From Candidatus Babeliales bacterium (GTDB lineage Bacteria; Babelota; Babeliae; Babelales; JBFXEV01): a stretch of 64,000 nt of DNA. Shown here piece after piece: positions 32,831-59,799 of the stretch (positions within the stretch are counted from its first letter, which is position 1; every line of letters starts with the position of its first letter). Position numbers and translations under genes: made by a program. The DNA is taken from contig JBFXEV010000001.1 in NCBI GenBank assembly GCA_050179755.1, forward strand, positions 1,321,994 to 1,385,993. Reading direction: 5' to 3'. Under the pieces are notes generated by a model. It was given only the letters and a program-made list of their open reading frames with translations. It was not told the origin of the DNA and ran no database searches.

Positions 32831-33327
32831 TATGTAGAAATTCCACTGATTTTATATCTTAAAAATCCCTGGTGCCCTTACGCAGGGCGGCGCATGCCTT
32901 TTTTTGTGCAAAAAAAGGACGCAAAAAAGCACCAGCGTGCCGCTGGACCATTCCGCGTGAGCGCTGAGCGCTATACTTCACGCGTTTCACGACCAGTATG
33001 CACACAGCGCGCATAGGAACCACATTTAAAAATTATAAAATAGCTCCTTGACCGTTTAGCCCGGACTTTTAGCACTTTTTTGCGTTCCGAAAAAGTGCGC
33101 AGGAGGAGGATCTAAACGCCGGATTTTTAAGGACGGCCGTCCTTAATATGCCCTTTTGGTCAAACTGTTTTGGGGCAAGCAAAATAGTTTGTTCTCGCCG
33201 ACGCAAGCCCGACGTAGCTTGCCGAGCCCTGAAGGCCCGGATAAGCGAAGGCGGGACAGGCGCTCGTGATATAAGATAAGAATATGAGTGAGCGGCTTTG
33301 AAATAAAAACAATACAATTTCTACATA
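32831..33327. mobile_element. Structured non-coding element, copy 1, bounded by 12-bp inverted repeat TATGTAGAAATT/AATTTCTACATA
   Basis: Left ~190 nt is highly similar to 38311-38495 and 59576-59760; multiple hairpins; no ORF. Confidence 0.7.
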
Positions 33328-33418
33328 TGCTAGTCATAATTTTAAACCTACGCTTTCTATCTTTTTTTACTAAAATCCGCTATAACTAAGAAGGTTAATT
33401 TGAAAGAAAAGGAACTCG

Positions 33419-34684
33419 TTGAAGTACCGTTTATATAGAAAAATAGTATATATCATCATCTTATTCTGCATGCCACGCACCCACTTTGCATGGGACAACG
33501 CACATTTTTATCGCTCTCCCTATTTCTGGGGTGAACCACGCTATGAACGTAGTAAGCTTTCAACGTGGCAAGCATATTTTGGTTGGTCATTTGCAAAAAA
33601 CGGTAGAAACAGCGATGGCAAAAAAACGAATATTCTTAATATTTACGGCCCCTATAATATGCATAATGTGGGCAGCAATGTAAGCACCCTTGATCCGCAA
33701 AATCCCCTTGACCGTATAGTCATAGACCTGAATAATGTTACCAATGTTTCGCCAACATTTGGCGTATTTAGTTTTGAAGGGAAATTTCATTCATTTGAAA
33801 TATTATTAGAAGCGTATCAAAACATAGTCAGTGGTTTCTTTTTGCACCTCATGCTGCCCATACGAAAACTAAAAATAAACAGTATTCGCTCAAAAGATTT
33901 AACCCCGCGTCGTGAAGAAAATATACCAGTATGGCAAGAATTTAAGCGAAACTTTTCTGCAATTCTTGAACGGCAAAATATAAGTATTGCGCCTTTTAAT
34001 AAAATGGGCCTTGGCGATTTTACCTTTACTGCAGGCTGGGCACGAAATTATGAAAATACTGAAACGTTAGATTTTATAGACATTGATGCGCGGGTTGGTG
34101 TACTTTTCCCCACCGGCGCTCCAAAAAATGAAAATCGAGTATTCAGTTTACCGCTTGGCTATAATAAACATTGGGGTGTACCACTCACGTTTAATGCATC
34201 GCTTGGTATATGGGATTGGTTAACTGCAGGGTTCCATATAAGTGCTTTATTTTTGGTTGATAAAAATATTGATATTCGTATTAAAACCGATACGGTGCAA
34301 AGCGGCCTTATTCGCTTTGCGCTTGAAAATGCTAAAGTTGATCCTGGATCATTGTTAAATCTGCAGCTTTATGCAAAAGCAGATCATGTGACCAATGGTA
34401 TTTCTGCATATCTTGTCTATCACTTTAATTATCGCGAACCAACATCAATCGCTCTTAGAAATGGTTCAACAATTGATAGTGGTGCTGTACGCAGCGATCT
34501 TTCTTACCATAGCTGGCGCATGCATAGTATGCAATTTGGCCTAGAATACGATCATGCAGCGCAATTATCTGATATTGGTCCACGTCTTGGCATATTCTAT
34601 AATCATGTGTTTAAAGGAAAACGCATTTTTGATGCTGATCTTAAATACTCGTATATCGGATTTGATGCTGCATGGTGTTACTGA
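33419..34684 (+). CDS. Putative outer-membrane beta-barrel protein, distant relative of the 7-14 kb array
   Basis: Signal peptide; GLGDF, VLFPTG, LPLGYNKH parallel to GVAD, APTG, PIVGNGRH; aromatic C-terminal GFDAAWCY. Confidence 0.6.
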   Translation: MKYRLYRKIVYIIILFCMPRTHFAWDNAHFYRSPYFWGEPRYERSKLSTWQAYFGWSFAKNGRNSDGKKTNILNIYGPYNMHNVGSNVSTLDPQNPLDRIVIDLNNVTNVSPTFGVFSFEGKFHSFEILLEAYQNIVSGFFLHLMLPIRKLKINSIRSKDLTPRREENIPVWQEFKRNFSAILERQNISIAPFNKMGLGDFTFTAGWARNYENTETLDFIDIDARVGVLFPTGAPKNENRVFSLPLGYNKHWGVPLTFNASLGIWDWLTAGFHISALFLVDKNIDIRIKTDTVQSGLIRFALENAKVDPGSLLNLQLYAKADHVTNGISAYLVYHFNYREPTSIALRNGSTIDSGAVRSDLSYHSWRMHSMQFGLEYDHAAQLSDIGPRLGIFYNHVFKGKRIFDADLKYSYIGFDAAWCY

Positions 34685-34685
34685 T

Positions 34686-34704
34686 AAGAGCGTATAACGC
34701 TCTT
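34686..34704. terminator. Hairpin between convergent genes
   Basis: AAGAGCGT-ATA-ACGCTCTT. Confidence 0.5.
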
Positions 34705-34707
34705 CTT

Positions 34708-35160
34708 CTATAAGAGGTCTATTACTTGGCTCGTGGCTGTGCGCAGATGCTGCATAAAAGCGCCAAAACTGGCATCGTTATATTGAATATGATCATACTC
34801 AGCACCAATAAGCTGCCACATATTCATAATATATTCACGCATATCATCTTTAATCAAACTTGCATGGGATCCATTATGTAATAAGCCATAGGTCTGCTGA
34901 TCACGCGCAAGCTCTGCACAGGCGTTATATAAATCTAGCCATACGTGCCGTGCCATATCAGCTTCAAACTGCTGCGATTCTAAATCTGTAGAAAGTGACC
35001 ATGCTGAGCGTAATGCATTGAGCGCACGAGAAAGAGATGTTCTGGGGTATAAATTATCAAATGAGAAAGAGATTATGTTTGCTTGCTCTGATGCACAGAA
35101 TACATTCTGAGCATGTATCAAAACTACTACAAATAAGACGTGCTTTATAGAAACTATCAC
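34708..35160 (-). CDS. Secreted hypothetical protein
   Basis: GGGAG RBS, GTG start, hydrophobic N-terminus. Confidence 0.65.
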   Translation of the reverse strand: MIVSIKHVLFVVVLIHAQNVFCASEQANIISFSFDNLYPRTSLSRALNALRSAWSLSTDLESQQFEADMARHVWLDLYNACAELARDQQTYGLLHNGSHASLIKDDMREYIMNMWQLIGAEYDHIQYNDASFGAFMQHLRTATSQVIDLL

Positions 35161-35295
35161 GGCAATCTCCCTTTATTCCCTATTTTAACGATACAGGTTT
35201 TATATTCAGATTGTCAATGATTCAGGTTTTGTTCCAGCAAAAAGCCCCAATCACTGCATAAAGCATTAATTGGGGCACAATATCTTTAATGTAAG

Positions 35296-58152: not shown

Positions 58153-58608
58153 TATATTCCTTTATTTACTATTTTTATATCATTACCAGGGTAATCCCTG
58201 CTAGATAAAAAGCAACAGCTCTAGAACATTAAAGCTAGCAATGCCCATAAACACCATAGCATTAAGGAATAATATCACGCCTAATGCCTATTTGACAGAG
58301 TAAATAGTTTTAGACAAAACCTATTATATACGGCCCAAATAACGACCTAATGGTCTTTTTGTCTATTTTTAGTCAATGTTCATACGGCCAAACGTTTTTT
58401 AAAAAAAAGGATAAGAAACTGTGGACTTTTTATATAATAAAACACAAAAATAAGAAAAAAAATTAAAAAAAATTCAAATTCAAGTAAAAATCTGCATTAG
58501 AGCATCAGATCGCTAAATTCGAACGATTCAATTTCATAAAATAGATTAATTTTTAATAAAAAACTATAAAGATTTCTTAAAAAATGACATTATGAAATGT
58601 AAAAAGTA

Positions 58609-58638
58609 TTGACTTCTGATCTGCTGAAAATGTAGTAT
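58609..58638 (+). promoter_or_regulatory. Putative sigma70 promoter of the histone-like gene
   Basis: TTGACT-18nt-TAGTAT downstream of a very AT-rich region; AAGGAG RBS follows. Confidence 0.45.
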
Positions 58639-58686
58639 GAAAGTGTAAAGGTAGTGTACCGTATCCATCTCAAAAGGAGAGTTACA

Positions 58687-59457
58687 ATGGCAACTAAAGC
58701 AAAAGCTGGAAGACGTGGAACTGCAAAAGCAGGCCAACGTTCTTTAATGGCTAAAATGGGCCTAGAAGATGAAGAAGAAGAAAACGGTTCTTCAACAGGC
58801 ACAAGAAAAAAACGCTCAACTGCAAAAAAAGCAGGAGCAAAACGTAAAACTGCTAAGCGTAAAACAACTAAAACCGCAGCAGCTAAACGTAAAACAGCTA
58901 AAGGCGCTACAGCTAAGCGTAAAACAACTAAGGGCGCTACAGCAAAACGTAAAACAGCTAAACGTAGCACTGCGAAAAAATCAGCTGCTAAAAAAGGAAC
59001 GGCTAAGCGTAAAACAGCTAAGCGTTCAACAGCTAAGCGTTCAACAGCTAAGCGTTCAACAGCTAAACGTTCAACAGCTAAACGTACTGCAAAACGTGGC
59101 GCAGCAAAACGCGCTGTTAAACGTACTGCAAAACGCGGTGTAGCAAAAAGAGCGGTTAAACGTACTGCAAAACGTGGCGCAGCAAAACGCGCTGTTAAAC
59201 GTGGCGCAGCAAAACGTGGCGTTAAACGAGCTGTTAAACGTGGCGTTGCAAAACGTGGCGTTAAACGAGCTGTTAAACGTGGCGTTGCAAAACGTGCTGT
59301 AAAACGCGGCGTTGCAAAACGTGGTGTTAAACGAGCTGTTAAACGTGGCGTTGCAAAACGCGCTGTTCGTCGTAAAGTAGCTAGAAATGCAGTATTGAGA
59401 AATGGTAAGCGCCGCATGGCTAAACGCCGTGTACGTCGCGCTAAGCTCAATGCATAA
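58687..59457 (+). CDS. Histone H1-like / Hc2-like basic repeat protein
   Basis: AAAAGGAG RBS; K/R/A/T-rich repeats KRKTA, KRSTA, KRGAA, KRAV, KRGV. Confidence 0.85.
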   Translation: MATKAKAGRRGTAKAGQRSLMAKMGLEDEEEENGSSTGTRKKRSTAKKAGAKRKTAKRKTTKTAAAKRKTAKGATAKRKTTKGATAKRKTAKRSTAKKSAAKKGTAKRKTAKRSTAKRSTAKRSTAKRSTAKRTAKRGAAKRAVKRTAKRGVAKRAVKRTAKRGAAKRAVKRGAAKRGVKRAVKRGVAKRGVKRAVKRGVAKRAVKRGVAKRGVKRAVKRGVAKRAVRRKVARNAVLRNGKRRMAKRRVRRAKLNA

Positions 59458-59479
59458 GTTGTAATCAACAACACCTTCT

Positions 59480-59522
59480 ATACAGAGGATATTGCCAAAG
59501 CGTAGTGTCCTCTGTATTATTT
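59480..59522 (+). terminator. Rho-independent terminator
   Basis: ATACAGAGGA...TCCTCTGTAT followed by TATTT. Confidence 0.7.
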
Positions 59523-59575
59523 CTACAATAAATTCTCATTTAAAATAATTTACAATCTAATTTTCTAAATTAACT

Positions 59576-59799
59576 TAGAAGTTCCACTGAATACTTACCG
59601 GATATATCACTGGTGCCGCTCCGCCCGGCGGCGCATGCCTTTTTTTGTGCAAAAAAAGGACGCAAAAAAGCACCAGCGTGCCGCTGGACCATTCCGCTCA
59701 ATCGCTGAGCGCTATACCTCACGTCGTTTCACGACGAGGTATGCACGCAGCGCGCATAAGAATTCCTCATAAAAATTAATTGGGAACCTGTTGATATCG
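59576..59799. mobile_element. Structured non-coding element, copy 3 (single arm, abutting the nth stop codon)
   Basis: TAGAAGTTCCACTGA-17nt-CACTGGTGCC...GCACGCAGCGCG...GTTGATATC, as in copy 2. Confidence 0.75.

Follow-up and report, generated by a model that had tools for sequence, protein, structure and literature searches.

A family of hairpin-rich intergenic repeats with a fixed-length variable segment in a Babeliales chromosome

What is a structured sequence that recurs four times between the genes of a bacterial chromosome, always with a segment of exactly 17 nucleotides (nt) that differs from copy to copy? This question is raised by a stretch of 64,000 nt from a Candidatus Babeliales bacterium (assembly GCA_050179755.1, contig JBFXEV010000001.1, positions 1,321,994 to 1,385,993 of the forward strand), hereafter the window. 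An earlier note, made from the letters alone, had described there four arms in which a conserved box is followed by the variable segment (N17) and by paired stems, and had read this as the layout of a guide RNA or as the end of a non-autonomous mobile element. Here, we show that the arms belong to a real family of hairpin-rich intergenic repeats. Small, structured, non-autonomous intergenic repeats are a known kind of element, and the best fit to our observations is a family that is new within this kind. More precisely, we regard as evenly balanced the proposition that the family is a structured repeat similar to miniature inverted-repeat transposable elements (hereafter MITEs) as well as to REP, BOX or QMITE elements, which would act in cis and in which N17 would be a fixed-length spacer.

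The pattern TAGAA(G/A)T(T/G)CCAC(T/A)GA-N17-C(C/A)CTGGTGCC has exactly four matches in the window, at 32835, 38312 and 59576 on the + strand and at 38744 on the - strand. The four arms are thus borne out, their coordinates having been off by at most 1 nt, and their N17 strings read exactly as given in the earlier note. Yet they are not equals. The box, the N17 and the 5' domain are found in all four, but only A, B and C (+ strand) are full copies, whereas the half copy D (- strand) is homologous to them over its first ~95-100 nt only, its distal part being unrelated to their 3' domain. What A, B, C and D have in common is the 15-nt box, the 17-nt segment and hairpins with compensatory changes. 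A unit has a core of ~190 nt and an overall length of about 190-225 nt; B and C have in common an extra ~35 nt ending in GTTGATATC, which in C adjoins the stop codon of nth. An 18-mer of the 5' domain matches four times in the window for 0.10 matches expected, a 20-mer of the 3' domain three times for 0.00 expected, and a profile built from the three full copies finds only the four known places in the 64 kb. The element is GC-rich, its GC content over 60 nt reaching 0.60-0.63 against 0.40 in the genome.

On the strand read in the earlier note (hereafter the pattern strand), a closing helix CTGGT/ACCAG encloses a GC-rich hairpin (stem 1) and a T-run/A-run hairpin with a short extension (stem 2). 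A 6-bp hairpin, CCAGCG/CGCTGG, competes with the closing helix for the CCAG bases, and stem 3 is a long bulged hairpin closed by CGCTG/CAGCG. The predicted fold energy is -65.5 kcal/mol (z -3.3) for one strand and -75.1 kcal/mol (z -2.8) for the other. Every stem variant that had been quoted as a compensatory change is present: stem 1 occurs as GCCCT/AGGGC, GCCAC/GTGGC and GCCG/CGGC; stem 2 is made of seven T-A pairs in A and in C, of five with an added C-G pair in B, and of five with an added G-C pair in D; stem 3 reads ATACTTC/GAAGTAT in B and ATACCTC/GAGGTAT in C, and in A it is partly lost through two 1-nt deletions and one substitution. Yet these changes are few, and covariation evidence from three to four sequences is anecdotal. 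When pairs are counted on the structure drawn from these same three to four sequences, 80 of the 86 cells of the 5' domain are paired on the pattern strand and 3 of its 23 pairs change on both sides, with a covariation score that is equalled in 2 of 500 shuffles. The corresponding figures for the 3' domain (three sequences) are 71 of 76 cells and 1 of 26 pairs, which is no better than shuffles. Sliding the helix partners brings paired cells down from 93-99% to 43-63%, and to 45-61% in the count for the 5' domain on the pattern strand. The C-G (B) and G-C (D) replacements in stem 2 are visible by eye only, because MAFFT misaligns the tip of this stem in B and D. The copies share a conserved fold kept by compensatory changes, in agreement with the earlier suggestion of selection on a single-stranded fold.

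The N17, an AT-rich linker, is 17 nt long in all four copies, without any indel. It is also more diverged than its surroundings: identity between A and C is 8/17 in N17 and 150/168 in the rest of the unit (p 9e-5), between B and C 7/17 and 139/168 (p 4e-4), and between A and B 10/17 and 134/168 (p 0.06), the two comparisons with B being inflated by the misalignment of stem 2. The segment is therefore variable and fixed in length, as had been claimed, but its four strings are related to one another. Their pairwise identities are 10, 8, 5, 7, 7 and 9 of 17 (mean 7.7), against 4.45 +/- 1.86 for random 17-mers of the window. The search for N17 targets suggested in the earlier note, as run within the window and the flanks, gave no match beyond chance: none of the strings occurs elsewhere in the 64 kb at two mismatches or fewer, and the longest matches to the 600-nt flanks (5-9 nt) are within the null range. 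On this comparison the four N17s are diverged homologues. Given the fixed length, the residual homology and the lack of matches in window and flanks, N17 would be a spacer of constrained length and almost free sequence rather than a set of independently acquired guides.

The arrangement of the copies and the distribution of their similarities are informative on how they may have spread. B and D are inverted with their box ends outward, forming 95-nt arms that are 77% complementary with 245 nt between them. The 12 nt that form the left terminus of A (TATGTAGAAATT, 32831-32842) recur exactly, in inverted orientation, 441 nt further right; of the 63,300 12-mers of the window, only 6 have such a partner at a distance of up to 600 nt. 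The composites so delimited measure 435 and 497 bp, and terminal inverted repeats are restricted to the B/D arms and the 12-nt pair of A. The sequence to the right of A (33021-33330) was also considered as a degenerate D-type arm and rejected, its alignment score falling inside the shuffled range. A and C are identical across 71 consecutive positions (stem 2 and linker), B and C have about four differing positions in the 3' domain, and stem 1 and N17 differ in every copy. This mosaic similarity would fit exchange among copies. A 14-mer, ATAAGAATATGAGT, is also found twice next to these elements, at 33276-33289, upstream of the beta-barrel-like gene by 130 nt, and at 38767-38780, upstream of argS by 92 nt; both sites adjoin an element terminus (E 0.02-0.08 in a short-word search).

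Does the family exist beyond the window? One frame (frame +2 of the six-frame translation) is open through all four copies, and the translated frame was therefore used as a search query. It matches P0124, a protein of 83 amino acids (aa) on a 5,977-nt NCBI contig of another assembly, with E 6e-14 in the representative library and E 5.5e-31 when a profile is used; P0124 is also the sole match among the 90% protein clusters. The copy beneath P0124 keeps the box, the eight-codon spacing from box to closing helix and both 5' hairpins, and the length of its 3' hairpin differs. Its N17 codons are nearest to those of B, from which they differ by 2 bases or more, the minimum for the remaining copies being 4-6, and its stems are compatible with A. 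Hence, at least one other assembly carries the family, whose modules reassort in that a B-like N17 stands with A-like stems. A second match, between the translation of C (59569-59769, + strand) across box and N17 and a motif repeated about ten times in P0125, an unrelated protein of 1,199 aa (E 1.2e-4, 6 stretches), is taken as coincidence because only the N17 of copy C gives it.

Other searches were negative. A reverse-frame profile found no match, nor did the ESM Atlas, and plasmid and phage collections gave none either (blastn with copy A, tblastn with P0124). The element profile, run on 80 MnmA loci of distant genomes (best identity 56% among the matches listed, mostly Bacteroidales), found nothing significant (best E = 0.26). 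Rfam 15 at gathering thresholds reports only three tRNAs in the window; at E<=1 over the whole window there is nothing on the element, and at E<=10 around A and B/D there is only noise at E >=2. The comparison with Rfam called for in the earlier note thus matched no known family, guide scaffolds included. The translated frames of the element match no Pfam family at E<=1. In the titles and abstracts of the literature we found no description of repeat elements or small RNAs in Dependentiae.

The two strands do not behave alike. On the complementary strand, 85 of the 86 cells of the 5' domain and 75 of the 76 of the 3' domain are paired, i.e. 160/162 against 151/162 on the pattern strand. The difference is made of nine cells at four pairs, which are A-C on the pattern strand and G-U on the complementary one, and there are no G-U cells on the former. 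Since two of these pairs share one substitution in B, the asymmetry represents only three to four independent positions. The relevant strand is probably opposite to the pattern strand, the evidence being suggestive and no more. In a consensus scan of the complementary strand, each of the four copies shows a hairpin with a T-run behind it; for A, B and C this is the 6-bp hairpin, directly followed by TGCTTTTT(T)GCG. In the three regions, terminator-like sites number 4, 7 and 5 for shuffle expectations of 1.1, 0.6 and 0.7, respectively. A GC-containing hairpin directly followed by a T-run, which defines intrinsic terminators, is thus predicted in all four copies. On the pattern strand, the GC-rich stem 1 lies a few bases ahead of the T-run of stem 2. 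With a hairpin and U-run on one strand and stem 1 and a T-run on the other, the middle of the element has the appearance of an intrinsic terminator working both ways, or of a structure that stabilises RNA, and may terminate transcription.

How would a MITE- or BOX-like repeat account for these observations? We infer that the units spread as DNA, through an enzyme encoded elsewhere, and that recombination or gene conversion, together with selection on the fold, keeps the copies alike. Once transcribed, they would act in cis: the 6-bp hairpin and U-run of the complementary strand and the GC-rich hairpin just before the T-run of the pattern strand would serve as a two-way terminator or an RNA stabiliser. 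N17 would then be a spacer, with a constrained length and a weakly constrained sequence, and not an address. Dispersed copies at three loci, full-size and truncated versions, inverted arms and mosaic similarity all speak for this interpretation, as do the fold maintained by two-sided changes, the excess of terminator-like sites, the high GC content and the likeness to published small repeats. Prokaryotic MITEs are described as being shorter than 500 bp and typically AT-rich, with stable stem-loop transcripts, terminal inverted repeats of ~4-30 bp and flanking direct repeats that fade in old copies (PMC10969869, in the part drawn on here and below). The family agrees with this definition in size and dispersion, with four copies at three loci in 64 kb and one more in another assembly, and in its predicted stable fold. 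It agrees with it only in part for terminal repeats, and departs from it for target duplication and AT-richness. The mobile-element end of the earlier note comes closer to our best reading than its guide RNA, although terminal repeats are confined to B/D and A and the search for a target duplication was negative.

Several observations weigh against a MITE- or BOX-like repeat. The element is GC-rich, while MITEs are typically AT-rich (PMC10969869). No transposase family was recognised among the scanned open reading frames (ORFs) of the window, nor any HUH, IS110, TnpB/IscB, integrase, nuclease, recombinase or reverse-transcriptase family (47 ORFs were compared with Pfam and 14 + 17 with NCBIfam, most unassigned ORFs with these two only), so that the statement of the earlier note that no cognate protein lies in the window holds for recognisable enzymes. 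Taken singly, none of the units A, B and C shows a convincing terminal inverted repeat. The best flanking direct repeats are 5-7 nt long, and repeats of at least 7 nt arise in 46 of 300 random placements, which is not beyond chance. A 17-nt linker without indel in four out of four copies, with the same spacing in the outside copy, is unexpected for a decaying transposon and points to a constraint on spacing. Likewise, conservation is sharply uneven, which a selected function would explain no less well than selfish spread. A strict 23-base DNA pattern has no match in 185,579 representative genomes, but this does not show absence because the outside copy itself would fail the pattern at two or more positions. 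Finally, the sample consists of four copies and one inferred from a protein.

The closest described analogue would be QMITE2 and QMITE1 of Coxiella burnetii, compared here by their description without sequences. QMITE2 elements measure 150-190 bp, exist in full and small versions, and lie in intergenic regions and 3' untranslated regions; one copy, at the CbsR16 locus, shares a bidirectional terminator (PMC5896051, also drawn on in part). By this description, the family resembles QMITE2 in its size, full and truncated versions, very stable predicted hairpins, location between genes or at gene 3' ends and intracellular host, and QMITE1 in having a short open frame for a basic peptide. It differs from them in that full-size QMITE2 has terminal inverted repeats and unique 7-11-nt direct repeats, whereas direct repeats are here at chance, and in its internal fixed-length variable segment, described for no QMITE in the part of the source used here (PMC5896051). 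As short, structured and dispersed intergenic repeats with expected cis effects, the units also resemble Correia elements of Neisseria and BOX and SPRITE elements of Streptococcus pneumoniae; they have the modular build and clustered copies of BOX and the terminator-like content of SPRITE (PMC10969869). Unlike Correia elements, which have defined terminal repeats, they are GC-rich, show no demonstrable duplication and carry the box and the 17-nt spacer at one end only. The duplication made by Correia elements is TA. Rickettsia palindromic elements are, like these units, old structured repeats of a reduced intracellular genome, in which stems carry compensatory changes and a frame stays open throughout. 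They are often inserted in frame inside protein genes, whereas all four copies here are intergenic.

The main rival is a family of paralogous small RNA (sRNA) genes on the complementary strand. The transcript, ~100 nt in length, would run from the long bulged hairpin over a single-stranded linker to the 6-bp hairpin, which together with its U-run would serve as intrinsic terminator, the remaining element being promoter or regulatory DNA or a read-through form. We consider this unlikely. The helices pair almost fully on the complementary strand, where all nine G-U cells and, in each copy, the hairpin with T-run are found. This asymmetry nevertheless comes down to the three to four independent positions mentioned above, on a structure drawn from the same sequences, and no convincing sigma-70-like promoter stands at a common upstream position on that strand. 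The very uneven conservation, with identity across long unpaired stretches, and the maintenance of the family in another assembly would suit an sRNA. Yet the half beyond the terminator-like site is as conserved as the half upstream of it, and it is this downstream half that D retains. There is a precedent in Coxiella, where sRNAs arise from such repeats (PMC5896051).

If N17 were functional in itself, the family could be a new structured RNA class in Dependentiae, in which N17 would determine specificity as an address or guide for a protein that reads it and whose gene lies elsewhere. N17 lineages would then persist across genomes while recombination homogenises the scaffold, with which the B-like N17 and A-like stems of the outside copy are compatible. 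We find this quite improbable. The guide RNA proper, with N17 as a programmable targeting segment between handle and scaffold and with its effector encoded elsewhere in the genome, seems very improbable to us and is not supported by anything found here. The likeness to omega RNA, bridge RNA and crRNA lies in a structured scaffold beside a short segment that is fixed in length and varies between copies, here significantly more than its surroundings. One may add that the B-like N17 of the other assembly could mean that particular N17s are retained. Yet the variable segments are homologous, with a mean identity well above that of random 17-mers, they have no targets in the window or flanks, and no Rfam guide scaffold was matched. 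The conserved box is located upstream of the variable segment, away from the scaffold; guides of transposon origin, in the known cases, take the guide from flanking DNA. Moreover, the better-pairing strand places N17 near the 3' end, downstream of the terminator-like site. Nor was an effector family recognised next to the copies, where the earlier note had proposed to look for one: the genes found there are grpE, one for a beta-barrel-like protein, mnmA, argS, one for a histone-like protein, and nth. Judged by eye, the 421-aa product of the beta-barrel-like gene, which adjoins A, looks like a signal peptide and then a beta-barrel-type protein whose C-terminus is aromatic.

It is extremely improbable that the element is a gene for a small basic protein, of 39-45 residues from an ATG in A, B and C. 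The frame is open in all four copies, the length change in B keeps it, an 83-aa ORF was called over the related copy of the other assembly, and QMITE1 copies of Coxiella also carry short basic ORFs (PMC5896051). But D has no ATG, no ribosome-binding site is seen before the ATG of the others, and past the 3' hairpin the ending frame varies among A, B, C and the outside copy. No Pfam family matches at E<=1, two very large libraries hold a single matching protein, and the compensatory changes track helices, not codons.

A few other candidates were tried and do not fit. A type I toxin-antitoxin repeat has against it that the only open frame is basic, that there is no conserved hydrophobic ORF, and that B lacks the short reverse-strand ORF which starts with ATG in A and C. 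REP sequences and REPINs in the strict sense are palindromic units of ~20-40 nt, in inverted pairs, with a cognate RAYT gene; the units here are ~190 nt long with five helices, there is one inverted pair (B/D) and there is no HUH-type family among the scanned ORFs. As a promoter, the box and N17 offer six last N17 bases that are weakly -10-like in A and B, with no -35-like hexamer at 16-18 nt, and the scan reports none. Sigma-54, heat-shock and ECF-type promoters and a recombinase site, examined by eye against consensus sequences, have the wrong spacing or miss half-sites. A T-box leader before argS was dropped by eye on the same grounds, and the Rfam T-box model gave no match.

Table 1. Positions of the repeat copies, their parts and the terminator-like sites (window coordinates)
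Feature	Position	Strand	Details
Copy A, full	32835..33022	+	box 32835-32849, N17 32850-32866, 5' domain to ~32935, 3' domain to ~33022; stem 3 partly degraded
Copy B, full	38312..38494	+	box 38312-38326, N17 38327-38343
Copy C, full	59576..59799	+	box 59576-59590, N17 59591-59607, core to ~59766
Copy D, 5' domain only	38650..38744	-	box 38744-38730, N17 38729-38713
Terminal box of units			TGTAGAAGTTCCAC
Inverted 12-nt partner of the terminus of A	33316..33327	-	possible right terminal repeat of a ~497-bp composite
6-bp hairpin then TGCTTTTTTG, copy A, terminator-like	32932..32946	-	consensus scan
6-bp hairpin and T-run, copy B	38406..38420	-	one G-T pair is an A-C mismatch on the pattern strand
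6-bp hairpin and T-run, copy C	59673..59687	-	~115 nt downstream of the nth stop, same strand
8-bp hairpin then TGGTTTTTGC, strand complementary to D	38627..38650	+	position as in A-C, sequence different

The window is chromosome of an amoeba-associated bacterium (Dependentiae), of ~40% GC, with housekeeping genes such as gyrA, ftsK, grpE, ssb, mnmA, argS, nth and tRNA synthetases, and ~25 ORFs that match no Pfam or NCBIfam family. Its MnmA was compared with the best 120 relatives: all those that bear a name are from candidate division TM6, Candidatus Dependentiae, Babeliales or Babeliaceae, and identity is 84-87% for the nearest ones other than itself. The copies occupy three unrelated intergenic sites: A lies between grpE and the beta-barrel-like gene, B and D between mnmA and argS, and C between the histone-like gene and nth. 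Orientation relative to neighbours was considered as a clue and proved uninformative, A and B/D lying between divergent genes and C between convergent ones, the latter provided that the histone-like gene is on the + strand (58654-59457). This gene encodes a histone H1-like protein of 267 aa with Lys/Ala/Arg-rich repeats, for which Pfam gives only a weak match, to chlamydial HC2 (E 0.11). The repeats also produce an artefactual longer ORF on the opposite strand (58590-59474), and a 16-bp hairpin lies downstream of the gene (59480-59517). The listed start of the grpE ORF (32224-32823, - strand) is a TTG at a distance of only 11 nt from copy A. Family matches set in around residue 37-47, and a likelier start is an ATG ~100 nt further in, with AAGGA ahead of it and a -35/-10-like pair between it and the element. 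About 1 kb from C, a 903-aa protein (60752-63463, + strand) matches sigma-54-dependent activators over its C-terminal third. Sigma-54 promoters need a 10-nt spacing, and we draw no link between this protein and the element because the latter has GG-N9-GC.

The window holds other repeats. A second, unrelated GC-rich family with the core CCGCTC(G/A)TCCTGAGCTTGTCGAAGGAT is found at 1847-1919, 10498-10526, 10615-10689 and 18594-18666; its members are intergenic, in both orientations, with arms 84-93% alike, and it may resemble a REP-like repeat that is widespread in other bacteria. A direct repeat of 82 nt, 93% identical between 45928-46009 and 47872-47953, corresponds to the 3' end of a thioredoxin-reductase-like gene and brackets ~1.9 kb of low GC (0.33) with ORFs at 46372-46653 and 46655-47638 (- strand) that match no Pfam or NCBIfam family, which is the layout of an island inserted at the 3' end of a gene. 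At 6934-14019 (+ strand), four tandem paralogous genes for products of 503-584 aa without Pfam family give rise to DNA repeats ~1.8-1.9 kb apart.

Dependentiae live as obligate intracellular bacteria in protists and have reduced genomes, whose non-coding DNA is little known. Should the fixed-length variable segment be functional, the family would be a new RNA class, which the present evidence makes unlikely. Its recognition would matter for annotation, as the element yields spurious ORFs, e.g. the one called as P0124 in another assembly. A folded repeat with terminator-like modules would also matter for transcript boundaries and for genome rearrangement in Dependentiae.

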